Shown here: positions 15,771 through 44,874 of the stretch, one piece after another
Numbering within the stretch: position 1 is the stretch's first letter
Layout: each line of letters starts with the position of its first letter
Source of the DNA: Clostridia bacterium
Lineage (GTDB): Bacteria > Bacillota > Clostridia > Christensenellales > UBA1242
Assembly (NCBI GenBank): GCA_016297845.1
Contig: JAEDFV010000001.1
Span: 80-64,079, forward strand
Reading direction: 5' to 3'
DNA: 64,000 nt
The notes under the pieces: generated by a model
Seen by the model: only the letters and a program-made list of their open reading frames with translations
Database searches by the model: none
What the model was told of the DNA's origin: nothing
Translations under genes and position numbers: made by a program

Positions 15771-15805
15771 AAAAAAAAGAGTGGCAAAAATAGCACATTT
15801 TTGCC
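15771..15805 (-). promoter_or_regulatory. terminator-like hairpin inside the rpoB 5' leader (possible attenuator)
   Basis: Minus strand: GGCAAAAA-tgtgcta-TTTTTGCC (15805..15783), then ACTC and U8 (15778..15771). It is downstream of the predicted rpoB promoter and upstream of the SD. Confidence 0.35.
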
Positions 15806-15870: not shown

Positions 15871-15899
15871 ATTTTATCATTATTTTATATTTGTGTCAA
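15871..15899 (-). promoter_or_regulatory. sigma-A promoter for rpoB-rpoC
   Basis: Minus strand: TTGACA (15899..15894), 17 nt, TAAAAT (15876..15871). It shares the core GTTGACACAAAT with the tRNA-Pro promoter. Confidence 0.6.
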
Positions 15900-15950: not shown

Positions 15951-15979
15951 AGCAAAAAATAAAAGGCTATAAAAGCCTT
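15951..15979 (-). terminator. intrinsic terminator of the giant-gene operon
   Basis: Immediately after the TAG stop (15982..15980): hairpin AAGGCT-TTTAT-AGCCTT (15979..15963), followed by TTTTATTTTTT. Confidence 0.7.
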
Positions 15980-18900
15980 CTATTTTGGTCTTTTTTCACC
16001 ATTTAAAGTGTATTTTGCTGAAAGAGGAATGTAGATAGTTTCGTTATCACTGGAAATTTTGTAGATATCTAAACTTGCGTCAGACAATAAACCCTTTTTA
16101 TACGTTGTTTTGTATTCATAAATTCCAATTCCATACCAAACTTGAAGCGATTCTGAAATTGAATAATTATTTATAACTATCTTTGTTAAATAACTTCCGT
16201 CACTAAGTTTTTGTTGGATATCATCTTTAAATGCGCTAGTCAAAATAATATTAATTGTTTTAGTTAGTTCACTATTAACACCAGAATCAGGAGACACGAC
16301 TTTACAATTTATCATATCCTCAACATAACCAGAAATATAGCCCACAACAGTTCCAACACTTGTTATAACTTCTGATGATGTTGAAGTTATTGCTCCACTA
16401 TGGAATGAATCAATAATTGAAATTTTGTAAGAACTTGAGTCAAGATTTTTAATTTGACCGACTAAGCCACCTATTTTATTTCCGCCAATTATCTCGCCAA
16501 TTATTATAACATTTTCAATTCTTCCTGCGCTCATAAGTCCAACTGCTCCACCTAATGCACCAACATCAATTTTTGCTTTAAGTTTAGTATTAACATAAAC
16601 ATTTTTAATTGTACCGTTAGACATATAGCCAGCAATATTACCTATCGCATTTGGAGAGAAATTTTCAGAACCAAAGAATCCGAGATAAGCACTTCCATCA
16701 TCACCAACTATTTTGACATCTTCAATAGTTCCAAGGTTGTGGCCAGCAACAACTCCGCCATAGACGTCAGCTTTAACTTTTTGACCTTGTGCACCAATTG
16801 CTTCCAAATTTTGAACTATTACGTTTTTGCCAATATACCCAAACATGAGTCCAGCATTTTCAGCCGCTGAAACATTGTTTCCATAGACAGAAGCAAAAAC
16901 AACTCTTCCATAACCATTTACTATTCCAGCAATCATGCCAGCATAAGAAACTTGATTTGAATTTCCGTTCAAATATTCTCTAATTGGGTGATTATTCAAA
17001 CTGGCCCTATATGAAGCATTAACTGAAATGCTAGAAATAATATTGTTGAAATTAAATTCACCCTCTGCAACTCCACAGATGCCACCAACAGCATTCTTTC
17101 CAAGAACGGTTACACCTTCAAGTTCAACTGCATAAGTTGCACCATCAATAACAATATTGACAAGAGTTGCACCATAGACTGTTCCAGCAACAGCTCCGAC
17201 ATTGTTACAGTTTGCCAAGCTTATATATCGTGGAGCAAAAGTTAAATTCTTTATGCTTCCGACTTTTTGGCTTGCAAGTCCAATCGTTCCAAAGAATCCA
17301 GCGTTGTCAAGTTTTGCCCCGCTGTCCAAAACATAGTTTCCAATTGTATATCCATTTCCTTCTAGATTTCCAAGGAATGTATATTGATAAAGACCACTGG
17401 AAACTGTTGATGTTTCATAGATTATATCTCCGATAAGTCTACAATATAGGTCTTTTATGATAACGCCCGAAGTGAATCCAGAACTTGAACTAATTAAAAA
17501 TTCCAAATCATCTTGAGAAGAAATTATATAAGGATTAAACTTACTTCCTTCAGGATTCTTTTCTTCATCTTCATAAATATATGTTGTTGTTTCTGTTGCT
17601 GAATCGAAGTATGTATCAACAAGTTTTTTATGTCCATAGGTCAAAATGTTTGGTGATACAAGTTGTGGTGCTTTTGTACTAAAAGTCAAGTATTCACCCT
17701 TTTCATTGCAGAAATCAACTTCGCCCAAACTTCCGTTTGCCCAGAACCAAACTCCTTCAGTTTTATCTGCAGTATTTGAGAATGCGTATTTTTCAAATTT
17801 ATCACTGTCTGAGAAATCATTTTCGGTTTGCAAAATTTCAAGTCCTTCAACTCCTTTGTTGCTCCCAAGACCCTTATTAAAGTTGCCACTTTCTAGTGCA
17901 AAACATGCTTCAAGTTCGCCAGAATTCAAAATTGAATTTTCAGAAATACCTGTCAAAATTCCAATGAACACGCCATTTTTTGCAGAACTTTCAAGAGCTG
18001 AAGTTGAATAGCAATGGGTAATTTTTCCTTCAGATTGGTTATTAAACACGAATCCACTTGCACTTTCGTTTGTTTTCACAGGTATATTTGAATAACAATT
18101 CGAAATTTCACCATAATTTTCATAGACAAACGCACCAGCACTTGCAGTCGAATAAATTATGTTTACTCCAGCAACTTCGTCTGGGAACATATCAGCGTCA
18201 GTATATCCTGAAGTTATGTAGGTTGTAAAAATTGTTCCACCAAGTTGGTTAACACCAACAACTCCCCCAGTAATTGCTGAGACAGAACCAGCAGTGTTGT
18301 TTTCAATTCTTGCCTTTACATAACTTGATGCAATACTACCACTTCCGCCATTAATTGCAGTTATTCCACCAAGGTTTGCTGGAAGATAACCAGATGTTGA
18401 CAAATTTGTTGCGTTAAGTGACAAGCCTGTTTCAATATGGCTGTTTGTTATATCACCATTGTTGATGCCAACAAGTCCACCAACCTGGTTTCCAACTTCA
18501 GTTGAATCTGGAATTCCAAACAAATTCAAATTCATAATTGCATATTGCTCGCCTTGAACTGAGCAGTTTGTTATTTTTCCATTATTTTCTCCAACTAAAA
18601 GTCCAAAAGTTACGCTTGTGTAATCATAGAAATTAAAGTTTGTGTTTTCGTTTACAAAAATTACAATATTTTGCAAAAGAGTGTTTTGTGCAGTTATCTT
18701 AAATAACCCAAATTTTATAGATTTTGTCTCTTCCGATTTCAAACTATATTCCCTTGGAAGAGTAATTTTGTAATTATTTCCATTAAATCCACCAATCAAT
18801 GTTTCAATTGGAGTAAAATCATCTGGCAAGGGTATATCATTCATAAGAATGTAATAATTTCCTTCTCTCATGTCTAACATATCTTCGTAAGAATAAATAG

Positions 18901-21900
18901 GATAAGGATTTCTTAGACTAGTTTTTTCCGAAATATCAAACGTGAAAATTTGAGAAAGAGTATATAAATTTTTTCCAATAACATCTTCGGTGTAAAGCGA
19001 CGGAATTCCATTATCATTATAATAGAATTTTGCAGAGAATTTTATTTCCAAGTCTGGCGCCGAAGGGGTATGAACTTTCATAAACTTTATGACAATTTTC
19101 TTTGTCGTTTCATTATATGAAATTTTAAATCCACCTTTAGAGGTTGTGTAGACTTTTGTGTTTCCAACACCATCTTTAAAATTCTTATTTCCAATAATTG
19201 TGTTCCATGTTCCTGTTGATTCCCTAAATGACCATACCAATTCCGTTTCATTTCCGACTGAAAGGTCAGAGAGGAATTTTAAAACATTATTACGAATTGT
19301 TTCATTTGATTTGTTATATATCAAAATGTCTGAATTAAGAGAAATTTCAAAAGTATACGAATTTCCTATCGCTGAAGCATAAATATTGTTAAAAACGTTT
19401 GAAACAATGTCGCTTAGGTTATTTTCTTTTACAACAAATTGTTCAAGTTCAATATACAAGATTGCTTCTTGGCTTTTCTCGCCATCAATATCAAGACCAT
19501 AAGACTTTATCATAAGGGTGCGTTCGCCACTTGGCAATGCATCTTTTATGACAAGTTTATATGTTCCATCATCATTTTTAACTATTGAAACAAATCCAGA
19601 AGCATTTCCTGAAAGTTCGAAGCAAACTTGACCATCTGTTATAATTGATCCTGATGTAGTAAAAGTCCCAAAAGTGAAACCTTTTACATCAACATCTAGG
19701 TCATATGAAACTCCTTGAGCGAGTTTAACAGGATTGTTCTCGTTATTTCCGCTTGAAACACCATCAACCGTCAATATAACTCCTGGCAACCTCTCAACAA
19801 AGAAATTCAACAAAACTTCGTCGCCAATTTGATTTCCATTTTCGTCGCGGAAAATAACTTTTAAAGCAACCTGAGAGTTATCGCTCATTCGTTGGTCAGC
19901 AAACGCTCTCACATAAAATTTTCCGTTTTGTATCAAACTTTTTGGAATGCTAATTCCATTAGAAATTCTTTTTGCCCCGCTAAGTGGAGCGTCAAGAACT
20001 CTGTCAAAAAGGTCAAAGGCAAGGTCATATTCATTCCCTTCAACATTGACTATTTCAACTGTTTTAAAGTATGTGAAATATGGAGTTATACTCAATTCAA
20101 GAAGAGAATGTTGTCCAGGGATAATAACTCCACTTGGGATATAGGAAAATCTGCCACTGAAATTATATTTCTCTTCATCTTTCGAAATAGTTGGGAACAA
20201 ATTTGTATAAACTGAAATTACACTTTGAGGTTGATAGGTTATTGTCATGCTTGACGAAACACCATTTGATGCCGTAATTGTTATTTTGAAAGTTTTTGCA
20301 GAAGAAATAGTTTTTCCATTTTCGTCAAGTTTGAATTTAATCGTAAAATTGCTATTAACTTTACAATTTATATGGAAACTGAGAGTGTCTCCATAACTTT
20401 CTCCTGATTTGTTAGTAAGTGAATCTTCACCACATTGAACAATTAATTCCAAGTATAATGTGCCTGGGTCAACGAGAATATTTCCGTTTTCATCAAGTTC
20501 CTTGATTGAAATTGTTACCTCTTCATTTTCATTAATTGAATCAAGAGAAACATTCATGTCGGTCACATAATATGGCTCAGTTTCTATTTTATTTTTTGAA
20601 ATATTAATTCCTTTTGTTGTGTTTTCGAAAACAAATTTACTATTAATTTCTTTTTTAGATTTTTCGTCAACTTCCAAATCTAAAATTTTAAAATACGTTT
20701 TTCCATCTTCGCCAACAAATTCAATATAAGGTAAAATTGTTACATTATACTCACCCGTATTTCCATTAACACTTATTTGATATGTTTCAGGGTCATTTTG
20801 AACAAGTTTAAGTGCCAAATCTAAGATTTCTTCTCCAGGCTTAATATATTTTGTTTCTCCACCAACTACAATTTTGAAAAGCATTTTTATATCAGTTGGT
20901 ATATCAAAATTCTTTAAGTTGTATTTATCTAATAATGACAAATATAATATTTTACTTAATTCTGCATCGAAAACAACTGTGGAATCATTTTCAATTTCAG
21001 TCGCTTTCGTGCTGTCGAGATAAACAGAAATATTATTGGCAAAGGAAATCACCTTAACATAAATTTCTTGTGAACCAGTTACATATGGAGAAGAAACAAT
21101 TAGTTTTGTTTCACCAATTGATTTTGGAACTAATTTTCCATTTGAAATTGCTAAAATTTCATTATTTGAAGATTCAATCAAATATCTATTTCCAAGAGAA
21201 GTCGTTAACATTGAAGAAATTTGTTTTTCAATATAATCTCCATTTTTGTCATGCAAGAATATATAGAATGCAACCTTGCCATCAAGTGAAGATGATGATA
21301 ATTCGAATTTTTCACCTTCTTCAGTAAGCATCATGTTTATAGTTGCCGTTGGAAGGAAAATAAATCCAAAACCTTCAACTTCTTTTATTTCAGTTTTAAG
21401 TTTATTTTCAGCAACACCATATGATTTTGTTGGATTGTTGTCACCTTTTTTATATATTGCATAATTACGTTCAGTATCAGTAATTTCAAATTGACTTACG
21501 CCATTTCCATCGGCAATTGCAACAACATAGTCAATTGTTCCGCCTGTTTTTGCGCCAACAATAAAGCCATATTTATTCGAAGAGCTAATATCAACTGCAT
21601 TTGTGTCGCTCAAATATGAAATGAACGAAGAACTTCCCAAACTTCCGCCTGTCATGTTTCCAACAATTCCGCCAACGTTGTTATTTCCAGAAATAAGCGT
21701 GACACCAGATTTCTTTTCCAAACTTTCCACAATCATTCCAGATATAGTTCCAGAGTTTGTTCCAACAGCGCCACCAACATTGTCATGCCCAACAACAACT
21801 GCTTGGGAAAGACAATTTTCAATTGTGCCACTGTTGTTTCCAACAACTCCGCCAACGTTGTCAAAGTTAGAAGCAGTTATCGTTCCAACACTTTCAAGAT

Positions 21901-24900
21901 TAGACAGAAGGTTTGTTGAACTTCCAACAATTCCACCAACACAAGATTGTGTGTTAACTGAATCGACTGAATCGCAGGAAATTGTCATATTAACGTTTGC
22001 AGTTGCAAAACTGTTGTTAAATTCAACAAGCCCAGCTTCGATTGTTCTTTCAATTGTTCCATTATTTTGTCCAACTGCACCACCAACAGAGATTATTGAA
22101 GCGCTTATGCAACCTATTTCAAATTTTCCAGAAACAAGCATAGTTAATTTTGATGATGCTGTTATGTTGTTTAAAATAGTTCCGTTATTAACTCCAACAA
22201 CTCCGCCAAAATATAGAGTGTTGTTGCCAACAGAAATTGAACTGCCATTTTTAATTTCAACTGAAACATTTTCAATTGTTCCGCTGTTCTTTCCAGCAAA
22301 ACCTCCAATATAAATTGTTTTGCCTGTGTTTTCGCTGAAATCCAAATTGAATAAAACATCAAGTTTTATTCCAGAAATTGTTCCTGTTATTTCTTTAAAA
22401 AGTCCAATATAAACTTCATTGGTTGTGTTTGAACAACTTTCAAATTCTTTTGTGAATGTTGCGCTTTTCCCATCTTCTGATTTAATTGTCCCAGAAAGTG
22501 TTTTATTCGACCAATCATAGCCCGACAAGTCAAAATTTCCCGAAACAATATAATATTTTTCGAAATTAGTATTGACTAATTTTTCAATGTCATCAGCAGT
22601 CTTTATGTAATAAGGATAAGCTTCGCTTCCATCATTTATATTAACCGAAATGTCAACAAATGTTGAATAATCACTTACAGTTGAATAACTGTCAAGAGCG
22701 ATTAATCTTAATGTACCTTTTCCTGCAACGTCATTGTTTTTTAATTCAATTTTCAATCCAGTCTCAATTTTTGTTATTGAAATATCAGATTCATCAATTC
22801 CTTCGGTCGCTGGAATAAAGACATAGTTCCAGTTTTTGTTTGTTGCTTCAAGAGGGAAAATGGAAACAAGAACTTGGTCGTTGTTTGAATAAGGGTCAAG
22901 GTTAATTTGCGTCTTGTTCACAGATATAACATCAACTTTGTTTGCCTGTTTAACATTGAAATTAATGTTTTTGTAAACACTGGAATTTTCAACATCTTTT
23001 GAACGAGAAACGCTTGCTGAGAGTGTAACTCTTCCCAAACGTAAATTTCCATCGTCATCAAAAAGATTTCCATCATTAACCTTGCAGGTAATTATTCCCA
23101 TGCCTGCATTTTCGCCTCTCTTGAAAAATTCAAAAGTGAAAACATCACATGTGTAAACATCGCTGTCTACATTTTCAACTTTTGCAAGTTCTCCAACATT
23201 AGTCGTCCAAACAACTGCATCAAAAATGTCTTGTTTAATCGAAGTTGGAACAACGTTTAAATATATGTTTGCAGTTGCAAGATTTTTTGAGAAATACCCA
23301 ACTGATGTGTAATCATATAAACTGAAATTGGTTGAACCTTTGCTTGTCGAAATGGAAAGCGAACTTATTTCAGTTATGGCTGACATTAAAATCATACCGT
23401 TTGCATTCTCAGTTACAGAAACTATTTCTCCGCTTTCATTAACTTTGTTAAATGTGATTTCAACTGTAAGTTCTTTTTTCGAAAATTCGTTTTCAAAAAT
23501 CAATTTTCCGTTTGTAGGAGTTTCAATTACAGTTCCATCAATTTTCAATTTGTATGTAAAATCACCACTCGCAGAAATTAATAGTGGGACTGCCGAATTA
23601 GTTTTAACAATTGCATATTGGTCATATGTTTTTTCGTTATAAACATAGTTAGACAAAACAGCAGTTAAACTTGAATTTTGACTTACCTCAGGGAAAGAAA
23701 TTTCAGCATTTGAAACACTTTGAATAACGTTGTAGTTAAAGGTTATTTTCACACCATTTCCAAGAACAACCTCAAAACTTCCAAACCCTGTGTCTATTGC
23801 AGTAAGTTTGATTTTTTCACCATCTTTAATCACTTGTAAAATTCCACTTGATGAAATCACAGTGAAATCTGACAATGCCCCAAGCGAAGCACTGCCTGCA
23901 AATCCACACACTTCAAGTTCAAGTGTTTTTCTTGAATTGTAAACTTCTTGACCCAAAACTTTTCCGCTTGTGTTAAGGTCAAAATTGTAATTATTTATTG
24001 ATTCAATTCCAGAAATAAGTTTAACATTTGTAGGTGAATTTTGAACATTGAAATTGTAGGTTTTTTCAGTGACAAAATCCACTCCCTCAAACGTAAATGA
24101 AATTTTTGCTTTTACGTTGTAGGTTTTAGGCGTAACACCTAAGTTTGCTTTAACACAGAATGTTTCTCCACTTGAAAAAGTAAGTGTTTGTTTTTGTGTG
24201 CCCGTTCGTGTCATGAGAATGAACTTACCAAGATCAGCATCTTCAAATTCAAGTGAAATTGTCGATTGCGAGAATAAATCACTTCTGCCAATCGAAATTG
24301 TTAAACCTGTTCCATAACTTCCACTGTAGTAGTCATATATCAAGAATTCTTCACTTTCTTTCGTTTCACCAAGCTTTTTGAGTTCAATCAAACTTGATGC
24401 AGTTTTGAATTCAACGGTTGTTTTTAGACTTTCGCTGTATTCATACTCTCCAACTTTGAAAGTGAATTTCACGTCATATTCAGAATATCCTTCATACTTA
24501 AATTCAAATTCAAATACATACGTTGAAAATTGTTCTCGTGAAGTGTCAACAAGATTTTTAAATTTTGATGTTGCAAAATTGTTTTGAGTTATTTGTTCAA
24601 GGTTTGTTGGAATGATATATATCCCAATTTCTTGACCTTTTGAGAAAGCTTTGGCAGAAATCTCCAAATCTTTCTCATCACAATCAAGAGTTACATAGAC
24701 CTTTCGAACTCCATATGAAACACCTTCTTTAGATGTAACATTTTGTATAACCGTCAATGTCTCGCCAAGTTCGGCATAACTTTCAATACCAGAATTGTCA
24801 TAAACTGTCTTTTTAAGCCCCATACTTTCCAAGCTGTCAACAACAACAACTGAAATTGTATCAAGCGCTTCTGTCCCAACAAGTCGAATTGCTCTGACAG

Positions 24901-25627: not shown

Positions 25628-25645
25628 ATCGTCCTCCGTTAGTTG

Positions 25646-33769: not shown

Positions 33770-33772
33770 ATC

Positions 33773-36700
33773 TCATTGACCAACAATAACAAATTCAACA
33801 AAATCAAGTGAGTTTGTGGTTGTTCCTTTTTCTGCATCATATGAAACTTTTGTGAAACTTCCTTTTCCACCAACACGACTGTTTGTTATGCTTGCGCCAG
33901 TATAATTTTCTACAACAAGTCCACCAATTATAACGTTTGTTGTATCAAGTTTGTGTTTAGTTTTTGTTGAGTCAAAATAAATTTTTATTCCGCCGTTCTT
34001 TATATCTCCGCCTTCAATGTCGAGCGAAACAACTTCACAGTTATAAATAACACCACTGTTATAAACCGCAATTCCACCGAAATTTACAGACTTAAAGATT
34101 GTTTCATCAACAATTATATCTTCGAGCAACCCATAGGAAACAGTTAAGTTTTTGAGTGTTGCATCTTCAGAGACATTAACAAAAAGTCCAAGATTTAGAA
34201 TATCTGTCGATTGTGACAAATTAAAACTTTTTATTGTGATAACTTTGTTATTTCCGTCAAGACTAGCAAAATTTGTCTTTTCAAAAGGAACAAAATTTTC
34301 CAACACAATGTCGTTCATCAAAATGTAATTTGTTGAAGCATATTGTTCTGATTCGCTTTGGAGATAAGTAACAAATTGTTCAGCAGTTTCAATTGGAGTT
34401 GGCTTGTCTTCATCTGAATACAATTGGACATTAATTGAGAAATTGTATGTTATGAAATTGTCTTGTTTTGTGTTTGGAAGTCTGTAGCCAATTCTAATTG
34501 TCATGTTAACGCTTCCAACAGATGTCCCAACAATTGTTAGTGTCGTCGCGTTTTCATTGTCATAGCGAATTGTGAAATATTTATTTGCTTGAGGTTCACC
34601 TGATTTTGAAATATAAGGTGTCATATCACTTGTATAATATAAATTATAAACTATATTTTTAGCATCAGATGTAAAGCCACCGCTTTCTTGTGCTTTAAAT
34701 TCCCTATCTGTGTTTAAAATATATTCATAACCTTGACTGTTACTAAACTTGTAAGCAACAGTTTTCAAAAACTCTTCTTTAGCATTATTAATTCTATTAA
34801 TAGATGACTCTTGTGAAGCAGAAATCATTTCAGGAGTTTCTGAAAGCTTGAAATTGAATTTCAAGTCTTTTTCTATCGCGGAAGGGGTGTCAAAAACATT
34901 ATCTTGTTCATCATTCCCTTCAATCGTTATCCCCTCAACAAGGAAATCCACAACTCGAATTTCAATGCTGTCTGTCGTTGATTCAAGTCTTCCATTAATA
35001 ATTTTTTGGACAATTGTTTGAATTTTGAAATATCCGTCGTCTTCAATTTCTGCATCAAGACCAACTGTCAACGTTCCGCTATAAATTTTCTTTCCGTTAT
35101 CTATTTCATATTCACTTGTATTGAAATATATAGATGCATAATCATAGGAAGATTCGCTTTTATCAAATTCAGAAAGGCCGAATGATGCAAGAGTTTGGTT
35201 CTCACCAACTGTAAGTTTCAATTCTGCAGTTGTTCCACGAGCGACAACCGCATCTTTTTCACCATTAATTGTGATGCTTGCAGGCTCAATAACTTCAGAA
35301 ATCAATGTTATTGTTTCAACTTTCGACAAGTATTCATTTCCGTCTTCATCAATTGCAAATATTTGGATTGTTATTGGGAAATATAGCCCTTCTTTAACTG
35401 AGTCCAAAATCTTTGTTCTAACATAAATGCTACCTGTTGAGTTGTTTGTGTTCTTAATCGTTAAGATATTAACATCGCGTTCACTGCTATAACCTGTTGT
35501 GGTTGAAGTTGAAAGGAAATAGTCCCCGCTCTTATACATTTGTTCCATAAGAACATAGTTTCCGTTAACAACACTGCTTGTTAAGACAATTTTTGAATAT
35601 GTTGCGTACGCTGGGAACAAATTAATTGACAAAATTCCACTGTCACCAGGAACTAAAATTGAACTTGGTTGGTCTTGAATTTTAATTCCACTTTCAGTTG
35701 ATGCATCATCTCTGTTATGATGTGTATATGTGACTGTAATAATTTCTTGAGGTTTGACGACAAGGTTAAATGATTTTTCAACATCACCATTGCTATCTGT
35801 CAAAACAATTTTGTATGTCTTAGTTTCGTTTACTAATTGACGTTGATTTTCCGCTATTGAAATCAAAAGTTTTGCCGAGATTTTTCCGTCATGAGCTGTT
35901 CCGTTTTTGATTGAAGCATTGAATAAGTCAGAATTATTTTCAACTTTTGTTTCTCCAAAATCTTCTGAAATCCAAACAATTTTTTCGTTTTCATCTATAA
36001 TTTTCATTATAAGTCTATCACTTGTTCTGTTTGAAACAAGTTCTGCGTCAACGCTCAAAACTGTTGAAGGATCAATTTCTGCCTTGTCAACAGAAAGTAA
36101 AATTCTTTCCGCGCGAACAGCGACCTTGAAATTAAATCCAAAATTAAATGCATCTTCAGAAACTGCTTGGAATCTTGCAATAAATAATTCGATAAATACT
36201 TGTTTTCTTTCATTAATTTGCTCAGAAGTCAAAGTTTTGAATTCTTCTTGATTCCTGATAAGTTCCTTTTTCCATTCGTTTTCTGCAAGTGAGTTAATGT
36301 AAGTTTTTTGATAGTCTATGTTAAAGTTAAAATGATAATCTTCGTCAGTCAAAACTCCATTGTTTGTTGAAACCGTAATCGTTCCAAAGGCAAATTTATT
36401 TGTTTCACTTCCAGCTGTAAGCCCCAACACTTCAAAAAGATTTACACTTTCGCCAGTCTTATAGGCAGAAACAACGTTTTCTTCTTCGTCAATGTAAGTA
36501 ATATCAATTTGTACTGCCAATGGATTTGTTTTCAACATAAACAAATTATGATTGAGAGAAACCACATTCTTGTTTGCAACAGTAAAGTAAGAAGGTCTGT
36601 CTTTGATAATTGTGACATCTTCTTTTCCATCTAAATTCTCGTTGGAATTTATTCCTTCATAAATTGAAATTGCTCCAACGGAATTAGTAACAAAAATTTT

Positions 36701-39700
36701 AATTGTTTTAGTAATATCAGAATCTTGGCTTGCCAACGACCTGAACAAAGGTTTTATGGTTATAGTTACATATCCAGTTCCGACTAATTGAAGTCTTCCG
36801 TTTACAATCTTAATAATATTGATATCGCTTGAATGGATTGAGAAATCTGCAATTGAACCTTCATATATTCCGTTTACATCATATATTCTCAAGAAATCCA
36901 CAAGTTCAACTGAATTTAATTTGTCAAGTTGTGCTTGAGCTTTAGTGTCCATTGCAAGGTCACTATAAGTTTCGTTGTAGAACATAATGTAATAGTCATC
37001 AGCAATGTAGGTGCCTTTTATAATTTTAGATTTATCAAGTTTGCTTTCTGGGTTAACTTCTATTTTATAATTTTCTACCCAAGTAGAAACTTTTGTTCCA
37101 CGAAGATAAGGCAAAATTCCATCTTCAAAGACCCAAACTGAATCGCTTTCAATCTCGTTTCCGCCAGCATCGTATAGATTTTCAATGTCCCAACCAACGT
37201 CTTTAAACCCTTGACAAGTTGATGGAATACCACTTGTTGAATAAAATGACTCAACCCCACCAAGAACTGAAGGCACCATGAATGCGCTGTCATGATAAAT
37301 TGGGCCAAGTGTCCTTAACAGGTCTAAAATCCAAACCTCTTGTTCATAATCTGTTCCCTTGATTTTCAATGTTGTAATTCCGCTTAAAATATCATCGTCT
37401 TCCATGAATTTGCTAAATAATTTAAGCATTTGATATTGTGCATTATAAATGGAATCAACATAGCCAAAGAAATTTTCAATGTTGCTCAAAGTAACGGTTG
37501 AAATGCTAGAAATTCCTTGAGCAGTGTCAATATAGTTTCCTGCTAGTTCGAGTATTGATTCTGCTTCTGATTTCCCGCTTTCACCAAAGGCTGTTTCATA
37601 AAGTGCCAACCACAAATCTTTTGTGCCGTAATCATATCCTAGTCCAGTGTCACCCGTCAAAGTTCCATTAAATTGACCTTTCAAGGTAGCCACATCGCCT
37701 TTCAAATCTGCAAGAGAATTGTTTATTTGTGGAATAATTATATTCTCAACAACATTGGTTATTGCCGTCTTTAAATCAGCATCTGTTTCATATGCGCCAG
37801 TGAGTCCAAATAATGAGCAATAAAGGTCTTTTATCATATCCTTGGTCATCTCGCCAGTTAAAATCTTGAAATCATCGAAGTAAGGATTATAGTAACTAAA
37901 TTTTTCCCAAACGCTTTCTTTCATGAAGTCATCAAAGTTATTATATAAACCAATTAAATATAACTTATAATACAATAAATTTAAGTCATTGATAGCCACA
38001 TGGTTAAGTGAAGAATCAAGAACTTTAACTGAAGTGTCGTATCCAGAGTAATAAACTACATCTGCAAAATCTTTATACTTTATAGTTTCTTCATCATAGA
38101 AATATCCATTGTAAGTATCGTTTTGAGATTCTGAATTCAAATCAAGTGAACCCATGCTACTGAATCTTATATTAGGGATATAATTGCTGTCGGTTGTGTT
38201 TCCAAAAGAATAGAAGTTTAAGTTCAAAAAATCACTATCAACGTTGACATCAAAGCACAGATTTAATTTTGAAACATCAGTTGATGAAGTTCTTTTGAAA
38301 GAATAGGTTTCAGTTCTCAATGACTCTGTTGTTTCTTCGCCAGTCTCTTGATTTATCTTTCTATATTTAATAACAAATTCCAAAGTCAAAGTTCCGTCAT
38401 TTGAAACTGTTCTTGTATATTCAACTACTTTGTATACGTCGTAAGTATTTTCATTTTCGCCAACTGTCTCATATATTTGATTCCAATAATTAACAATCGT
38501 TCTTGTAAAATTTGATTCTTCCGCTAAATTAATTGTTACTCCGCCTTCTGGATATACTCGAACAACTCCTAAACTATCTTCATAAGAAATAGAGTTGATA
38601 TACACTTCATTTCCTCGAAGCATAAATCTTTCTATGTTAAGATAGTAACTTGAAGTATCTTCGCTAGAATGTTTTGTCAACGACGTCGATAAAGTAAATT
38701 CATCACTTTGTTTATTAGTTGCCCCTTCGTTGTATGTTCTGCTTAAAGTTGCAACTTTATTTGGTCCTGTTACAAAAAGTATGTTTTTGCAATATAGTTC
38801 GTTATTTATTATACTTTCTGTATGGTAAGAACTATTGAAATTTGTTGCCCAAAGTGCGGCAGTAATGTCGTTAACCCAAACGGACACAAGCCCACTGGTG
38901 TCCAAAATTACATATGCAAGAACTGTGGACGACAATTCATTTTTGACGGCGATAGGAAATACAAAGGAACCATTGCTGGTGTAGAAACATCCATTATCAA
39001 GTGCCTCGTTCGTGGCTGCGGAATTCGCGATGTTAGCTCTGTGCTGGGCATAAGTATCGGCAAGGTCTTGAGCGTAGTTCATAAATTCCGTTTTAGAACT
39101 AAACCCAAACAAGTTTGCTATGACTGTTTGGAAATCGATGAGTTCTGGACTTACGTCGGATCCAAAAGCCATCGTGTATGGATGATTTACGCCTATCACC
39201 GCACTTCTGGTGAGATCGTTGCTCTCGTTCTTGGTAAACGAAACAAGCGAACTGTTGTAAAGCTCTATCGCCTTATTATAAAATTGGGTGTAACTATTAA
39301 GAGCATTGCTACTGATGGTTGGGATGTATTCCGTACCGTTTGTAGGGATTTCAAAATTGTTCATAAATGTGGCAAACAATTCACTAAGGGTATTGAAGGC
39401 AACAATTGTAGACTCAGATGCCGTCTTAGATGTGTGTTTAGAAAGACCTGTAATTTCTCCAAAATCCCCAGCAATCACGCCAAACGGATTGCAATCGTCA
39501 TAACTTACCTTAACTTGGGTGTTATTGTATCCTAAAATTTGCCTTTCATACAATTCGGAACACCACCCTTTATTTTGTAAATTCAATGTTGCTGTTCCGT
39601 AGTTGTATAAATCTTTGTAAGATTTTTGGCCTGCATCAATAATTTCCATTCCTTCAACATTGAAACATGAGAAAGCGGCAAAAGCATCTAAAAGTCCTGT

Positions 39701-42700
39701 CTTTTTGTCAGTTCCAGCAATAAATGACGCCACAGGTGTTCCCGTTGCACTGCATGCACTAGGCAAAGAAGTAACATTAGATTTTATATAACAATTTTTT
39801 ATTTCAGAAAGTGAACCAGTGTATATAAACTGACCAGCACTATGTCCTAAATTAACATTTTGAACATCATAATGGACAAGAGAATAGCAATCCAAAACTA
39901 AATTGGTCGCTTCATTATAGTCACTTATTAAATTTCCAACAAGTCCGCCAGAATTTGATTCTTTGACTGGCAATGCCCCACTGAACATTGAACGTGAAAT
40001 TTGGGTGTTTGAAGAAATTCCAACCAATCCCCCAGAGTAAACTTCACGTTGAGTTGTGTTCAATCTATAGAAAATTTGATCAGTTGAAAGAGCATTCCAC
40101 TCAGCTGGAAATTTTCCGCTCGTGCTATCAAAATATAATTTTAATTCATCATCAGATATGCTTTCCCAAACAAAAGGCTTTGCGCCTGAGTATTCCGTTC
40201 CATTAACAATACTGTTGTAATATTCTTTAGGCGCACTTTCATTTATTTTTTCAACATAATGAACATAAACAATGCCTGTGTCGCTTGGCAAGAACTTTAT
40301 CAATTCTTTTTGTTGGTCAATGTCATAAATTGCTTCCACGACGCAACCATAGATGTTTCCGCTTTCAGAAACAGCGCAGATTCCGCCTGCGGAGAAATTG
40401 ATTTCATTTGAATATGAATAGGCAGAGTTATTCAAAATAAGAAGTGTCACATTTGCGTAGAAAGGAACAGTGTTGATATATTTACAATCTTTCAAATCTC
40501 CTTTGTTGCATGCCACAATTCCGCCAGCACTTTCAACGCCAACAACGCCGCCGATGAAAGTGTAGTTTATGATTTTTCCTTCGTTAACTCCGGCAATTCC
40601 TCCAATGTTTGCACCAGAAATACCTGTTGCCATGTAACCTTTTGTCAATGAATCGTCTGTCGCTTCAATTGTTCCCAAGTTGAGACCAACGAGTCCCCCT
40701 GTGTACTTAACAAGTTGACCTGCTTTGTATTCAATTCCGTAATACATTCCGTAGGCAGAGTTTGAGTTAATTACTCTTGATTCATCGTGTAATGCTAAAA
40801 ACCCAAAAAGTTCTGCAACCGACGCCTCAGAAGAAGACAGTGATGGATTGAAAACATTTTTATATTTGATGGTCGTCAATGAATCAGCATTACTATTTTT
40901 TGTTCCATAATGCTCTTGGAATGCTTTCATATATCCGAAAACATCCATTCCGTCGCCAGCATTTTCCAAAATTTCTTTGGTGTCGAGAGTTCCATTATAG
41001 TTGGAGCCAATGTTTCTTATCACACCTTTATTTATGTTTGCAAGACCGCCATAATATGTCACACCATTATAAGTTGAAACATATTCATCAAAGGTGTAGC
41101 CAAGTTCTGGAAGATAAGCAGTGTAATAGAACATATCTTCAACAACACCACTTTCAGCAATCATCTTAAACAAAGGTTTTATTGCGTAAATTCCATAAGG
41201 TGTGATTTCTGACTGATAACGTCCTGACAATTTGCCCATGAAATTTTCAACAGGTTCATAATCAACTGGCATGAAAATGTTGTTTCTTAAAACGAAAGTT
41301 GAAGCAGGAGAAGAGCCAAGAAGTTTTAAATCTTCCGACTCATAAATTTCAAAGGCAGAATCTGAACTCTTGCCATCGGCAACTTTGATTGGGATTCTGA
41401 CAATTGGCTCTTCGCCATTCCAACCATTTGTTGACTCATAGTAATTTGACGTTGGATAAATGACAAGAGTGCCATTTGCTCCAAATTGTGCCAATTTTTT
41501 CTTTTCATCTTTTGTTGTTAAATTTCTTTCCTCTTCAGACAAATTGAAATAATCTGAATAGTCATATGCCACACGAACAACTGTTAATTTGTCGCCAACC
41601 ATATATGCAAAGAATTGTTTGTCGCCATTTTCATCAATGTAATAATCTTTCTCTGACAAATAATCCCAGTTAAATTCAAATTCAAGAGATTTGTTTGTTA
41701 TTTCTTTTTCACTGTTTGCAAAAATATTATAGACAAGTTCAAGTTCATAAACATCGTCGATTAACGAACTTACATAATTGTTGTAAGCTTCTTCATCATT
41801 AACCTCAACTTCAACTCCCTCTTGTATAATTATTTTTTTGAAATCATCAGCGGATTTGAGTTGATTTTGAATGTAAATTGGGTCTTCTTCGCTTGCATTA
41901 ATTACTTCAATTTCACTTATTTCAACAGCAGTTGTAATAATAACCCTTGAAATTGCAGTAAATTTTTTGTCAGGATTGATTTCAGAAATCGACATTGCAA
42001 AAATAAAGTTTGCATCACAAGACTTTAAAGCCTGAATTGTAAATGTATACACATTACCTTCAAGTTTTCTTGTAACTTTAAGGGTAGCAGCTGATAAGTT
42101 ATATGTTACAACACCGTCGGCATTAAGATATAGCAAATCGTTAACAAATAGGTTTGAAATATTAACTGTTGAACCATTTACAAATATTTCCAAATTTTTT
42201 AGATAAGTTGGTATCAATCCTACATTTACGGGATTTACAGTCACACTGAATGAACCTATGGATTTACTTATGTTATTTGAATCTAAGAATTTGTCACCTA
42301 TTGAATCGTAACTATAAACATCAATAGTTCCATTCTTTATCGAAACACCTTTTATTGGGACAAAGAAATTTACCAAATAGAACAAACTTCCTGCTGGATC
42401 CTCAGTGTATGTTCCATCAGACTTCATTGCCTTAATATCAATTCTGATAAGGACATTTCCCTCAACTCCTGAGTTAATCGCCTCGAGAAGTGTTGAATTT
42501 ACCAAACGAGAGGTGTTAATTATTGAACTCGAAGATGACCATTCAAGATTAGCAACATCTATATCACTAATACTGATTGTTTTAAGAGTCTTTCCGTCAG
42601 GAATTGTAAAATCGAAAAATTTATATTCAAGGTAATATTGTGCATTTGAAGGAACAGCTTTTTTGATAAGTTGAACACCACTTCCACCAGAATTTGCTAT

Positions 42701-44677
42701 AGAAAGTTTATTGAGTTGTCTTGTAACTTCAATTCCGTTGATTTTTACAACAGTGTCAGAAATATTTTTGTAAGGGACAATGTCGCTTTCAATTACCGTT
42801 CCGCCATATGTCACATCTTCCAAATCAATTTCAAGTTCTTCAAGAGGGCATATTACAACCAAACTGAAGTTGACAGTTTTTCCGTCAGAAAGAGAAACAG
42901 TCAGCGTTGTTGAACCGACTTTGTTTGGGATTATTGTAAATTTTCCATAAACATAGTTTTCATCTTTTGCGTAGTAAGAAAGAGTTCCAATTGTCGCAAT
43001 ATTCCCATTTGCAATTTTTACACTGGAATTTGCACCAATTGTGAATGATGCTGGGTCAATAGCAATGTATTGTGTAATTGTTTTTCCATATTCAGCAAAG
43101 ATAGTTGTCTCGCTTTGTTTAACTTCTAAACCGCTTTCTGTTTTGTCAGCAATAAAAACATTCTTTGCATTTGGATTAATTGTGAAAGTTATATTTGTAA
43201 GCGCACGAGAAGTCTCAGTCGCTGTAAAATCACAGAATGCTGAGGCTTGAGCATAAATTTGTGCAGATTTGTTTGTAACATTTAACAGATATTTTGAGTT
43301 TATAAATGCATAAAGTTTAGTACCTGAAGAAATTGTGGCATATCTTATTGTGCCATTTTCGTTTCCAACCGCGTTTCCATTTTTGTCATATCCAAAAACG
43401 CAAATATAACCAGTTCTTGTGGCATTAAGTCTGTACAAAGAAACTGGCAAATTTTCAAAATCCTTTGCCCAAATTGTTATATAATTTTCGCCAGATTTTA
43501 AGTTGCCCGGCAAAATAGAAAATTCAACCATTTGACCATTTGTTAAATTAATTGAGTTTTCAAAAATGTCAATTTCTACGGATTTATTAGCTCCGTTTAC
43601 TTCCACTGAGTCCGGTTTATTGTATGAGTACAAATTTAAGACGACAGAATTTTCAACGTAATTGCTTTCCCCGGCATTATATCCGTTGTAGGAAACGGTG
43701 AATTTTACATTGTCAATATTTCCTGCCTCTTGGGAATTAGCCTGAATCAAGAAAATATATCTGTGGAGTTTTAGAGCAGAATCATAACTGTAACCTGTTT
43801 GAAGAACGCTGAATTTGTCTAAATCAGTTCCGAAAACTTTATCAATTTTCAAGGTTTCGTCTTGACTTCCCGCTTTAACAATCAAAGTTACAGTTTTGCT
43901 GTTAGGGTAAATTGATTCATCTTTTTCTGTTGGGAAAATTTCCAAATAGTTTTGGATTTCGCTTGAAGATGAAACATTCTCAACAACTGTTTTGCCGTCC
44001 ATAGAAAGAACAACTTGTATTGGCTTGAGAATCTTAACTTCAAATTCAGTTGAAATTTCTGAATTAGAAGAAGAAACTGCTTGCAAAGTTACGCTTTGAA
44101 GAGAGCAACTGTCAGAAACCACCAAGTTCCCGTCAATTATCTCACAACCTTGACTTTCCCCAACAAATGAAAAATCCAAATCACGTTGATTTGTGTCAGA
44201 AGGTATAAAATTCCATATCGTTTGCTGTGAGAGAGAAAGAGTTCTTCCAGCAACAACATACAACGAATTTGCATATTCGTTTTTAAGTTCAATGCCTGTT
44301 ATTGGTTGTATAACCTTGACAGTCAAAACAAATTTTTGAGAACCTTGAAGACTTGTAACAAAAATATGAGCCGTCCCCCTAGACAAGCCTTTGACTTCTA
44401 AAACAGTCTTGCCATTTTTTTTGGGGGTTGGAGAAATTGAAACAAAGTCTTTTTCATTATCTTCCAAACTGAAATTCAGTTGGTCGCTTCCATTCCCAAA
44501 ATTCTTTAGTTCAAACTCAACAGATTTAGTTTCTTGGTCTGTTCCCAGAACGAGTTCAATTTCAGAGTTAGAAGCAGTTATTTGCGCTTTTTTATCAGAT
44601 TCTCCACAAGCATAAAGAGTCATACTTGCAATTACGACTAAAACAAAGCAACCAATAAATCCTAAAATTTTTTTCAT
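33773..44677 (-). CDS. giant surface lipoprotein A, 3634 aa (Ig-like repeats plus GLUG-type arrays), carrying an in-frame IS1 insertion and ending at an in-frame TGA
   Basis: 10,905-nt ORF. SD GGAGGGG is upstream. Lipoprotein signal MKKILGFIGCFVLVVIASMTLYAC|G. Ig-like repeats fill the first ~1000 aa. GLUG-type units include TGGLVGLNLGTIE, IGGIAGVNEGKIINY and SGGLVGISSNTQISRS. Residues ~1704-1972 are the antisense translation of an IS1 element. The C-terminal module is cut by TGA (33775..33773). Confidence 0.85.
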   Translation of the reverse strand: MKKILGFIGCFVLVVIASMTLYACGESDKKAQITASNSEIELVLGTDQETKSVEFELKNFGNGSDQLNFSLEDNEKDFVSISPTPKKNGKTVLEVKGLSRGTAHIFVTSLQGSQKFVLTVKVIQPITGIELKNEYANSLYVVAGRTLSLSQQTIWNFIPSDTNQRDLDFSFVGESQGCEIIDGNLVVSDSCSLQSVTLQAVSSSNSEISTEFEVKILKPIQVVLSMDGKTVVENVSSSSEIQNYLEIFPTEKDESIYPNSKTVTLIVKAGSQDETLKIDKVFGTDLDKFSVLQTGYSYDSALKLHRYIFLIQANSQEAGNIDNVKFTVSYNGYNAGESNYVENSVVLNLYSYNKPDSVEVNGANKSVEIDIFENSINLTNGQMVEFSILPGNLKSGENYITIWAKDFENLPVSLYRLNATRTGYICVFGYDKNGNAVGNENGTIRYATISSGTKLYAFINSKYLLNVTNKSAQIYAQASAFCDFTATETSRALTNITFTINPNAKNVFIADKTESGLEVKQSETTIFAEYGKTITQYIAIDPASFTIGANSSVKIANGNIATIGTLSYYAKDENYVYGKFTIIPNKVGSTTLTVSLSDGKTVNFSLVVICPLEELEIDLEDVTYGGTVIESDIVPYKNISDTVVKINGIEVTRQLNKLSIANSGGSGVQLIKKAVPSNAQYYLEYKFFDFTIPDGKTLKTISISDIDVANLEWSSSSSIINTSRLVNSTLLEAINSGVEGNVLIRIDIKAMKSDGTYTEDPAGSLFYLVNFFVPIKGVSIKNGTIDVYSYDSIGDKFLDSNNISKSIGSFSVTVNPVNVGLIPTYLKNLEIFVNGSTVNISNLFVNDLLYLNADGVVTYNLSAATLKVTRKLEGNVYTFTIQALKSCDANFIFAMSISEINPDKKFTAISRVIITTAVEISEIEVINASEEDPIYIQNQLKSADDFKKIIIQEGVEVEVNDEEAYNNYVSSLIDDVYELELVYNIFANSEKEITNKSLEFEFNWDYLSEKDYYIDENGDKQFFAYMVGDKLTVVRVAYDYSDYFNLSEEERNLTTKDEKKKLAQFGANGTLVIYPTSNYYESTNGWNGEEPIVRIPIKVADGKSSDSAFEIYESEDLKLLGSSPASTFVLRNNIFMPVDYEPVENFMGKLSGRYQSEITPYGIYAIKPLFKMIAESGVVEDMFYYTAYLPELGYTFDEYVSTYNGVTYYGGLANINKGVIRNIGSNYNGTLDTKEILENAGDGMDVFGYMKAFQEHYGTKNSNADSLTTIKYKNVFNPSLSSSEASVAELFGFLALHDESRVINSNSAYGMYYGIEYKAGQLVKYTGGLVGLNLGTIEATDDSLTKGYMATGISGANIGGIAGVNEGKIINYTFIGGVVGVESAGGIVACNKGDLKDCKYINTVPFYANVTLLILNNSAYSYSNEINFSAGGICAVSESGNIYGCVVEAIYDIDQQKELIKFLPSDTGIVYVHYVEKINESAPKEYYNSIVNGTEYSGAKPFVWESISDDELKLYFDSTSGKFPAEWNALSTDQIFYRLNTTQREVYSGGLVGISSNTQISRSMFSGALPVKESNSGGLVGNLISDYNEATNLVLDCYSLVHYDVQNVNLGHSAGQFIYTGSLSEIKNCYIKSNVTSLPSACSATGTPVASFIAGTDKKTGLLDAFAAFSCFNVEGMEIIDAGQKSYKDLYNYGTATLNLQNKGWCSELYERQILGYNNTQVKVSYDDCNPFGVIAGDFGEITGLSKHTSKTASESTIVAFNTLSELFATFMNNFEIPTNGTEYIPTISSNALNSYTQFYNKAIELYNSSLVSFTKNESNDLTRSAVIGVNHPYTMAFGSDVSPELIDFQTVIANLFGFSSKTEFMNYAQDLADTYAQHRANIANSAATNEALDNGCFYTSNGSFVFPIAVKNELSSTVLAYVILDTSGLVSVWVNDITAALWATNFNSSYHTESIINNELYCKNILFVTGPNKVATLSRTYNEGATNKQSDEFTLSTSLTKHSSEDTSSYYLNIERFMLRGNEVYINSISYEDSLGVVRVYPEGGVTINLAEESNFTRTIVNYWNQIYETVGENENTYDVYKVVEYTRTVSNDGTLTLEFVIKYRKINQETGEETTESLRTETYSFKRTSSTDVSKLNLCFDVNVDSDFLNLNFYSFGNTTDSNYIPNIRFSSMGSLDLNSESQNDTYNGYFYDEETIKYKDFADVVYYSGYDTSVKVLDSSLNHVAINDLNLLYYKLYLIGLYNNFDDFMKESVWEKFSYYNPYFDDFKILTGEMTKDMIKDLYCSLFGLTGAYETDADLKTAITNVVENIIIPQINNSLADLKGDVATLKGQFNGTLTGDTGLGYDYGTKDLWLALYETAFGESGKSEAESILELAGNYIDTAQGISSISTVTLSNIENFFGYVDSIYNAQYQMLKLFSKFMEDDDILSGITTLKIKGTDYEQEVWILDLLRTLGPIYHDSAFMVPSVLGGVESFYSTSGIPSTCQGFKDVGWDIENLYDAGGNEIESDSVWVFEDGILPYLRGTKVSTWVENYKIEVNPESKLDKSKIIKGTYIADDYYIMFYNETYSDLAMDTKAQAQLDKLNSVELVDFLRIYDVNGIYEGSIADFSIHSSDINIIKIVNGRLQLVGTGYVTITIKPLFRSLASQDSDITKTIKIFVTNSVGAISIYEGINSNENLDGKEDVTIIKDRPSYFTVANKNVVSLNHNLFMLKTNPLAVQIDITYIDEEENVVSAYKTGESVNLFEVLGLTAGSETNKFAFGTITVSTNNGVLTDEDYHFNFNIDYQKTYINSLAENEWKKELIRNQEEFKTLTSEQINERKQVFIELFIARFQAVSEDAFNFGFNFKVAVRAERILLSVDKAEIDPSTVLSVDAELVSNRTSDRLIMKIIDENEKIVWISEDFGETKVENNSDLFNASIKNGTAHDGKISAKLLISIAENQRQLVNETKTYKIVLTDSNGDVEKSFNLVVKPQEIITVTYTHHNRDDASTESGIKIQDQPSSILVPGDSGILSINLFPAYATYSKIVLTSSVVNGNYVLMEQMYKSGDYFLSTSTTTGYSSERDVNILTIKNTNNSTGSIYVRTKILDSVKEGLYFPITIQIFAIDEDGNEYLSKVETITLISEVIEPASITINGEKDAVVARGTTAELKLTVGENQTLASFGLSEFDKSESSYDYASIYFNTSEYEIDNGKKIYSGTLTVGLDAEIEDDGYFKIQTIVQKIINGRLESTTDSIEIRVVDFLVEGITIEGNDEQDNVFDTPSAIEKDLKFNFKLSETPEMISASQESSINRINNAKEEFLKTVAYKFSNSQGYEYILNTDREFKAQESGGFTSDAKNIVYNLYYTSDMTPYISKSGEPQANKYFTIRYDNENATTLTIVGTSVGSVNMTIRIGYRLPNTKQDNFITYNFSINVQLYSDEDKPTPIETAEQFVTYLQSESEQYASTNYILMNDIVLENFVPFEKTNFASLDGNNKVITIKSFNLSQSTDILNLGLFVNVSEDATLKNLTVSYGLLEDIIVDETIFKSVNFGGIAVYNSGVIYNCEVVSLDIEGGDIKNGGIKIYFDSTKTKHKLDTTNVIIGGLVVENYTGASITNSRVGGKGSFTKVSYDAEKGTTTNSLDFVEFVIVGQ
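38755..38762. repeat. target-site duplication, left copy (CTTTATTT)
   Basis: The identical 8-mer directly abuts both IS ends (38755..38762 and 39568..39575). Confidence 0.8.
38763..38783 (+). repeat. IS1-family left terminal inverted repeat
   Basis: GGTCCTGTTACAAAAAGTATG compared with the reverse complement of the right end, GGTGGTGTTCCGAATTGTATG: 15 of 21 positions are identical. Confidence 0.75.
38787..38815 (+). promoter_or_regulatory. candidate transposase promoter in the IS left end (leaderless configuration)
   Basis: TTGCAA (38787..38792), 17 nt, TATACT (38810..38815), then 6 nt (ttctgt) and the ATG at 38822. There is no SD. Confidence 0.45.
38822..39535 (+). CDS. IS1-family transposase (single ORF, InsAB-like), 237 aa
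   Basis: N-terminal zinc finger CPKCGS...YICKNCGRQF. The blocks CLEIDEFWTYVGSKSHRVWMIYAY, IATDGWDVF, FTKGIEGNNCRLRCRLRCVFRKTCNFSK and H..RI....YLN line up with E. coli IS1 InsB ([68 protein letters not shown]). It has no internal stops and needs no frameshift. Confidence 0.9.
   Translation: MVRTIEICCPKCGSNVVNPNGHKPTGVQNYICKNCGRQFIFDGDRKYKGTIAGVETSIIKCLVRGCGIRDVSSVLGISIGKVLSVVHKFRFRTKPKQVCYDCLEIDEFWTYVGSKSHRVWMIYAYHRTSGEIVALVLGKRNKRTVVKLYRLIIKLGVTIKSIATDGWDVFRTVCRDFKIVHKCGKQFTKGIEGNNCRLRCRLRCVFRKTCNFSKIPSNHAKRIAIVITYLNLGVIVS
39547..39567 (-). repeat. IS1-family right terminal inverted repeat
   Basis: The reverse complement reads GGTGGTGTTCCGAATTGTATG. Its outer bases resemble the E. coli IS1 end GGTGATGCTGCCAACTTACTG (quoted from memory). 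Confidence 0.75.
39568..39575. repeat. target-site duplication, right copy (CTTTATTT)
   Basis: See the left copy. An 8-9 bp duplication is the known IS1 family behaviour. Confidence 0.8.
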
Positions 44678-44839
44678 GCTTCCCCTCCGACTTTATCTTT
44701 AATCTCTCTAAAATTTTTATTTTTATTAAAATTTATATATATATTAATATTTTTTTTGTTGAAAACAAAGCAATTTAACAAGATTAAGGCGAAACAAAGC
44801 GATTTTTGAACAAAAAAAGAGAAAAAATTGCTTCGTTTG

Positions 44840-44868
44840 TTGTAAAATTCAAACATTTTTGCTACGAT
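44840..44868 (+). promoter_or_regulatory. candidate promoter abutting the ttcA-like ATG (leaderless configuration)
   Basis: TTGTAA (44840..44845), 17 nt, TACGAT (44863..44868) preceded by TGc (extended -10). Only 6 nt (atacgc) then separate it from the ATG at 44875. There is no SD. Confidence 0.4.
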
Positions 44869-44874
44869 ATACGC

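Follow-up and report, generated by a model that had tools for sequence, protein, structure and literature searches.

Three giant open reading frames (ORFs) lie directly upstream of rpoB on the minus strand of a 64,000-nt stretch of contig JAEDFV010000001.1 from a Clostridia bacterium (the window, on the whole of which all positions are given), and they raise the question of how many genes are present and what proteins of this size would do. ORFs A (33773..44677, 3,634 aa), B (25646..33769, 2,707 aa) and C (15980..25627, 3,215 aa) are co-directional, with gaps of 3 nt between A and B and 18 nt between B and C, and together span 28,698 nt, or 44.8% of the window. To judge from sequence comparison, A and B are not two genes but the halves of a single 6,343-codon gene, AB, and the locus consists of two genes, AB and C, which are distant paralogs (~22-25% identity where alignable). 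We find that AB (~6,340 residues) and C (3,215 residues, 349 kDa) belong to a family specific to a clade of uncultured gut Clostridia, and that they are probably lipid-anchored giant surface proteins, which would act as non-enzymatic adhesive or ligand-binding fibres. An earlier sequence-only reading of the window had given the same ORF coordinates, lengths, gaps and share of the window (~45%), all of which are borne out; it had also described an operon of three paralogous proteins, of which the paralogy stands for AB and C and the count of three does not, A and B being one gene split by a TGA.

In the mechanical annotation, AB (25646..44677, minus strand; ~694 kDa if read through) appears as ORF A plus ORF B, divided by an in-frame TGA (33773..33775, minus strand) that lies inside a predicted beta-helix module, M2, and aligns with a Gly codon in every relative. 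Pairwise BLAST aligns A 2819-3633 with C 1636-2458 and continues with B 1-657 against C 2419-3060; since these blocks run on in the order of C, A plus B is collinear with C across the junction. Searched with a query that covers this point, 5.8 billion proteins yield only nine relatives, and the four closest (P0001-P0004, 42-60% identity) read through, with Gly in place of the stop. A scan of species-representative genomes finds 11 loci, all from gut metagenome-assembled genomes (MAGs), ten labelled as uncultured Clostridia, Firmicutes or Lachnospiraceae and one as Gastranaerophilales. In seven of these loci (L003-L009) the AB ortholog is a single unbroken ORF of 5,811-6,475 codons that retains the lipobox, and in all seven the codon at the TGA position is GGA, GGC or GGG; codon alignment with the closest relative, L003, sets CAA GGA GAT ATG against CAA TGA GAT ATG in the window. 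The ATG assigned to "B" encodes an internal Met that is conserved in a rung built on the GLUG motif, though replaced by Ile in L004, and we find neither a Shine-Dalgarno site ahead of it nor a signal peptide on B, so that B is not an independent gene. Three separate paralogous genes in one operon would fit three ORFs that each have an ATG, short gaps and a single terminator, but a B that starts in the middle of a beta-helix on an internal Met, lacks its own start signals and is uninterrupted from A in seven of seven orthologs makes this model very improbable.

Conservation is equal on either side of the TGA (0.49-0.73 over AB 3001-3600 before it, 0.51-0.75 over AB 3601-4300 after it), which implies that the change from GGA either happened very recently or stems from an error in base calling or assembly. 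That sequencing or assembly introduced the TGA, or that it is a minority variant, and that an intact 6,343-residue (694-kDa) protein is made, is doubtful but has to be taken seriously: the 2,707 codons past the TGA are fully open and no less conserved than those before it, a single base separates the window codon from that of L003, and the gene family is broken by frame errors and N runs in another assembly, L001. Set against this, the base carries no mark of unreliability in the sequence, and the change is a substitution, not a homopolymer indel. The AB ortholog in L001 (118-18463) is broken into three frames, with a run of N; these breaks are most likely assembly error rather than biology or an insertion sequence (IS). 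UGA is read as Gly in genetic code 25, and the alignment of the UGA with an invariant Gly would suit recoding by design, whether to Gly as in that code, to selenocysteine or by read-through; we regard this as scarcely credible, since TGA ends miaA and mutS at normal lengths (mutS is 862 aa both in the window and in L014), the other ~20 window genes have no in-frame TGA, the orthologs use ordinary GGN with neither Cys nor TGA at this position, and GGA is one step from TGA. The termination of miaA and mutS and the GGN codons of the orthologs led us to reject code 25, code 4 and selenocysteine alike.

The sequence-only reading had assigned the repeated units of these proteins to the GLUG motif (Glug, PF07581), and this identity depends on how the proteins are searched. 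Full-length A, B and C return nothing meaningful from Pfam and NCBIfam, with zero Glug matches. Scanned as 42 overlapping segments of ~300 aa, they match Glug (gathering score 20.5 bits) in 8 of 42 segments, and on pieces of 74-422 residues PF07581 reaches 34.0, 32.6, 32.3 and 27.3 bits at best. The 34.0 and 32.6 bits are reached in C, which also has a score of 21.6 bits, and the 32.3 bits in B, which also has one of 21.5 bits; a further piece scores 22.8 bits, and ORF A alone peaks at 19.7 bits, below the gathering score. The missing Glug on full-length proteins is a length artefact; a scan of this kind, taken by itself, yields no Glug or Ig-like hits from hidden Markov models (HMMs) and would wrongly reject the finding under a test put forward with the earlier reading. 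A home-made HMM finds ~35 clear GLUG units, clustered, across all 10 modules, that is, a handful of clear units per module plus degenerate ones. The units are thus real, and the dozens per module first described are not seen.

The header motif described for these modules is recognisable at the start of 10 of them, seven in AB and three in C, all on the minus strand. M1 (39758..41326; A 1118 to ~1640) has a degenerate header, units at AB 1209-1391 and the Glug score of 19.7 bits. M2 (33098..34420; AB 3420-3860), with its header at A 3425-3483 and units at AB 3533-3761, contains the TGA, is conserved at 51-75% and is a beta-helix in the structural model described below, as is M3 (31658..33028; B 248-704). 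M4-M6 (26570..30397; B 1125-2400) have headers, Glug scores of 21.5, 32.3 and 17.5 bits, and units at AB 5032-5926. In M7 (25649..26236) the header (...NLMSDVDLS..GTFNGNGHKIYFGSN) is conserved, and the tip of ~150 aa that comes after it varies from strain to strain; the header matches PF20585 (Pectate_lyase_5) at 21.8 bits, under the gathering score of 24.3, and aligns to the start of that family, which is described as a "putative pectate lyase-like adhesive domain". The three modules of C, which are likewise assigned as beta-helices, occupy 21518..22645, 17648..18916 and 15983..17518 (C 995-1370, 2238-2660 and 2704-3215).

An AlphaFold2 model of B 1-720 (mean predicted local distance difference test, pLDDT, 72; predicted template modelling score, pTM, 0.78) shows short stacked strands from residue 1, with pLDDT mostly 70-94 over residues 330-690, in M3. 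Residues 1-130 of B form beta-helix rungs in this model, which places the TGA in the middle of a beta-helix. A Foldseek search of the model against the PDB is headed by 3n6z (E = 5.6e-4), with 7uvl, 7uvk and 6xjb also at the top, and nearly all of the 43 matches are right-handed beta-helices, including a serine-rich repeat protein (SRRP), tailspikes, pectate lyases and Ag43; a phmmer search of three regions against PDB sequences gives no real matches. The model and these matches support the assignment of the modules as right-handed beta-helices with GLUG rungs, as in the N-terminal domains of IgA1 proteases, and agree with the beta-helix or solenoid arrays proposed earlier.

The M26 IgA1 proteases of S. 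pneumoniae (6XJA/6XJB) and G. haemolysans (7UVK/7UVL), together with Bacteroides ovatus BACOVA_03286 (3N6Z, a "putative IgA1 protease"), share this GLUG-rung right-handed beta-helix and supply the top three Foldseek matches; literature on GLUG holds essentially nothing beyond the IgA1-protease structures. In the pneumococcal enzyme, the non-catalytic N-terminal beta-helix shifts by ~10 Å as an active-site gate on IgA1 binding (PMC7695701). The window proteins differ from these proteases in having no M26 catalytic domain, HExxH, G5 or LPXTG, in spreading ten modules over two proteins instead of one, in their N-terminal lipobox anchor, and in an identity of only 12-14%; with the catalytic domain absent, AB and C are not members of the M26 protease family. 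No HExxH motif occurs in AB or C, and catalytic families of Pfam or NCBIfam, M26 among them, are not found in full-length or segment scans. These results bear on the possibility that the beta-helix modules are catalytic, as polysaccharide lyases or hydrolases or in the manner of IgA1 protease, which would make AB and C giant surface enzymes. Foldseek matches to pectate lyases, polygalacturonases, tailspike depolymerases and IgA1 proteases, and the sub-threshold match to the pectate-lyase-like PF20585, point in that direction, but such matches (E 0.2 to 10) are due to a common beta-helix scaffold, the description of PF20585 itself is that of an adhesive domain, the best matches fall on the non-catalytic N-terminal domain of IgA1 protease, and no segment matches a glycoside hydrolase, polysaccharide lyase or carbohydrate esterase family. 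We therefore consider an enzymatic role distinctly unlikely.

Ahead of the modules, residues 25 to ~1115 of AB (41333..44605, minus strand) form an all-beta stalk, probably of tandem bacterial Ig-like domains, that is conserved at 53-69% mean identity; C also has an all-beta stalk after its signal peptide. A profile of the first two N-terminal domains matches the Ig-like domains of SbsC (E = 1.7e-4 to 5e-3), and Big_2 (PF02368) is matched in 5 of 17 aligned N-terminal relatives at E <= 0.1 (best E = 2.1e-4), mostly below its gathering score of 22.8 bits. The AlphaFold2 model of the N-terminal region, which is confident only at model residues ~20-190 and 480-585, gives 238 Foldseek matches at E <= 1e-3, and those listed are essentially all tandem Ig-like arrays. 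No internal repeats are detected when tiles of the ortholog profile are compared by hhalign (all probabilities <5%). The three lines of evidence, each of them weak, agree with one another, and an Ig-like stalk is consistent with all of them. Among 1.84 billion representative proteins, all searched with HMMER, there are only 24 stalk relatives, ~ten of them giant, so that the stalk is clade-specific.

The profile and model matches of the AB stalk are to the Ig-like arrays of S-layer proteins, namely Geobacillus SbsC (4UIC/4UJ7), SbsB, and B. anthracis EA1 and Sap, which suggests another identity for AB and C, a structural coat or S-layer-like envelope component instead of a specific adhesin. 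The large, conserved, chromosomal genes, set beside core genes, would suit such a role. However, AB and C are 4-8 times longer than these S-layer proteins and lack domains that would anchor an S-layer, such as SLH and CWB2; a size of 350-700 kDa together with hypervariable inserts is unusual for an S-layer protein that forms a lattice, and the likeness does not go beyond the generic bacterial Ig-like fold. A coat function is therefore unlikely.

How AB and C would be held at the surface is suggested by their N-termini. Lipoprotein signals combine a positively charged n-region, a hydrophobic h-region and the lipobox [LVI][ASTVI][GAS]C. The signal peptides of AB (44606..44677; MKK...TLYAC/G, Cys24) and of C (25556..25627; MRKR...TLVSC/G), both on the minus strand, satisfy a lipobox pattern like PROSITE PS51257, in what is a pattern match only; both had been called lipoprotein signal peptides earlier, and both fit. 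The lipobox is kept in 9 AB orthologs and in 22 of 22 C orthologs, six of the seven giant homologs at a greater distance have it too, and the AB signal peptide region gives a weak match to NCBIfam LP_plasma. A motif scan detects no LPxT[GANS] or NPxTG in these proteins, neither has a hydrophobic 19-mer besides the signal peptide, and SLH, CWB2, choline-binding and LysM domains are absent from the Pfam matches of the 42 segments, in line with the lack of an LPXTG, SLH or choline-binding C-terminus noted before. The only visible anchor thus appears to be an N-terminal lipid, an unusual anchoring mode for proteins this size.

Comparison among strains shows that the two genes vary in different ways. 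All seven related MAGs show the order of a divergent PP-loop gene, AB and C. Full-length orthologs of C number 22 (3,170-3,365 aa) and are evenly conserved (44-96% identity), and the ratio of non-synonymous to synonymous substitution rates (dN/dS) of C is 0.19 against the 96%-identical strain L014; this purifying selection, with the conservation, identifies C as a working gene and not a relic. An exact-sequence look-up of C returns no record. AB is instead a mosaic, in which conserved blocks (residues 1-1400 and 3000-4300) stand beside hypervariable, indel-rich segments at ~1600-2000, 4400-4600 and the last ~350 residues, and this is so even against the 80%-identical L003. The first such segment (A ~1600-2000; 38678..39880, minus strand) is mostly missing from orthologs, with 2-29% identity per ortholog, L003 included, and 73-83% gaps over 1701-2000. 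Within the second lies a lineage-specific insert (B 758-983; 30821..31498, minus strand) that is absent from orthologs (gap fraction 0.85) and coincides with a tandem duplication of two ~113-aa copies (30820..31495), visible as direct repeats D2, D3 and D5 with a period of 321-351 nt and 78-92% DNA identity. Of the active remodelling proposed for this locus, the duplication and the nonsense codon are present; the IS insertion is not, as the ORFs are contiguous and neither the 42 segments nor the 20 further window ORFs scanned (150 aa or more) match any transposase family.

The sharpest difference is at the C-terminus of AB, where the last ~150 residues (B 2557-2707; 25646..26101) are wholly unrelated in strain L014 (L014:300-750). 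The two sequences part directly behind the header ...GNGHKIYFGSN, which is conserved, and their DNA is 98.6% identical from the AB stop codon into C. The window tip is 42% identical to that of the more distant L015, and L003 carries a third type. A Pfam scan of the variable tips finds no significant family match, and no ORF lies between AB and C, hence no immunity-like ORF after the AB tip. This pattern recalls polymorphic toxins of contact-dependent competition systems, in which ...GNGHKIYFGSN would mark an exchangeable C-terminal toxin on a long fibre, and such a system would produce both the abrupt change, past a conserved header, to unrelated C-termini of ~150 aa in strains with 96%-identical C genes and a tip family common to the window and a more distant lineage. 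Yet no small immunity-like ORF is present, since C follows 18 nt on in DNA that is 98.6% identical between the strains, the tips match no toxin family, and clearly hypervariable segments occur in AB only. We also know of no polymorphic toxin or contact-dependent system with an N-terminal lipid anchor, which counts further against a toxin, and on balance we find this alternative quite improbable.

An adhesive fibre is the reading that we favour for both proteins. AB and C would be exported by Sec, Cys24 would be lipidated and signal peptidase II would remove the signal peptide, as the conserved lipobox suggests, and the lipidated Cys24 would tether the N-terminus to the outer face of the cell membrane. 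From there, ~1,000 residues of tandem Ig-like beta-sandwich domains might bear the remainder of the chain across the cell wall and past it. Right-handed beta-helix modules follow, seven in AB and three in C, each made of a pectate-lyase-like cap (the header) and GLUG rungs and separated from one another by further all-beta spacers. The beta-helix modules and the variable distal tip would bind ligands, which would make the proteins adhesive fibres, and the membrane-distal C-terminal tip of AB may determine specificity, given its exchange between strains that are nearly identical. In this genome, the G-to-T change (GGA to TGA) would truncate AB in the middle of M2, and nothing but A, a 403-kDa fragment next to the anchor, could reach the surface.

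Several points weigh against this picture, besides the possible error at the TGA. Lipidation of AB and C is predicted from a pattern alone, and it is architecture alone that suggests an adhesin role. The modules might still have an unrecognised enzymatic activity, since the beta-helix is a common scaffold of polysaccharide lyases and hydrolases. The N-terminal model has a low mean pLDDT of 41.7, and the window's own sequence gives no Ig-like Pfam match at E <= 0.01 in the 42 segments; what is left of the N-terminal Ig-like repeats in the sequence-only reading is the weak profile and fold evidence for Ig-like domains, with neither sequence repeats nor a Pfam match in the window.

Giant surface adhesins of Gram-positive bacteria that contain Ig-like or beta-solenoid regions, among which Ebh and Bap-type proteins are further examples, have LPXTG-sortase or C-terminal membrane anchors and stalks that are serine-rich or highly repetitive. 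The L. reuteri SRRP (5NY0, its binding region), hit number 4 in the Foldseek search, resembles the window proteins in being very large, modular and beta-rich, with a stalk and a binding region. AB and C differ in their N-terminal lipid anchor, in the absence of detectable stalk repeats and of an accessory Sec or sortase signal, in their multiplied beta-helix modules and, for AB, in the exchangeable tip; judged by analogy, these adhesins would be the nearest functional analogues of AB and C. Gram-negative fibre adhesins (Ag43, Hbp, EtpA and TpsA-type proteins), which give weak Foldseek matches, also have a long right-handed beta-helix as an adhesive or self-associating scaffold, but they use type V secretion, lack a lipobox and have no sequence relationship to AB or C. 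A bolder proposal, which is speculative and rather unlikely, is that AB is a lipid-anchored modular fibre whose membrane-distal ~150-residue tip cassette recombines at ...GNGHKIYFGSN between gut Clostridia lineages, in the way of phage tail-fibre tips or polymorphic-toxin C-termini, and sets host, glycan or cell-cell specificity, that the truncation is a natural "tip-less" escape variant, and that AB and C, kept beside rpoBC throughout the clade, form the main surface organelle of these bacteria.

C is followed by an intrinsic terminator (15951..15979, minus strand), a hairpin of -12.7 kcal/mol (z = -3.7) and then UUAUUUUUU; the terminator reported earlier after the last ORF is thus present, as a hairpin plus U-run at 15979..15951. 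Downstream lie rpoB (12079..15753) and rpoC (8533..12048), identified by Pfam, and a promoter-like site for rpoB at 15871..15899 (minus strand) combines TTGACA, a 17-nt spacer and TAAAAT with a TG extension (11 of 12 matches). Read in this way, the giant locus is closed by its own terminator and rpoB is served by its own promoter-like site. Between that site and the rpoB ATG, the leader holds a second terminator-like hairpin (GGCAAAAAUGUGCUAUUUUUGCC and then a U-run; 15783..15805, minus strand), which could be an attenuator. Shine-Dalgarno sites can be read on the minus strand ahead of both genes, GGAGGGG for AB (44682..44688) and GGAGG for C (25633..25637), the latter inside the 18-nt gap.

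The giant locus takes the position of rplJ and rplL, the usual upstream neighbours of rpoB. The order C, rpoB, rpoC recurs in L014, and in L015 with a three-gene insertion between C and rpoB, an opposite-strand cassette (L015:19678-21801) that includes a DNA methylase (PF00145). On the far side of the locus, gyrB and gyrA lie just past it on the opposite strand (window 44678..51163), and around 44-52 kb the sign of the GC skew tracks the orientation of the genes. For the PP-loop gene, the mechanical TTG start at 44806 is probably too early: orthologs align from residue ~20-29, and a candidate ATG (MRKILSQL...) lies at 44875. With that start, the AB promoter must lie in the AT-rich intergenic region of ~197 nt. 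Elsewhere in the window are another small predicted lipoprotein (MKKILSILLLFLFIPLCFTGC...; 58753..59589) and a 767-aa ORF without a Pfam match (61159..63462). A homolog of 29% identity in L002 (ERZ28615137 scaffold_742) is found among four large co-directional ORFs (4,118, 1,056, 1,501 and 1,773 aa) and adjoins the sporulation genes YpeB, SleB-like, SpoIIR, SipL and Veg. This is the sole link to sporulation that we see, and the description of the host as a Gram-positive spore-former finds no support.

The AB/C family has no functional name in any source. Its two members here fill 28.7 kb of a genome that is probably small. In a word-indexed search, precomputed Pfam domains are missing in 39 of 40 relatives, and none of the six relative clusters checked carries a name. 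HMMs of short repeats such as Glug fail on proteins of 3,000-6,000 residues and succeed on 300-residue pieces, so that giant surface proteins go systematically unannotated, and for gene calling the lesson is that one stop codon made one gene look like two "paralogs". AB and C would be new, previously unannotated examples of large modular surface adhesin-like proteins, a kind that is itself already known, and the swapped tips are the lead to follow. They are candidate colonisation factors of uncultured human-gut Clostridia, represented in Hadza and other gut MAGs, and the strain-variable tip of AB could underlie niche or host specificity at the level of the strain.

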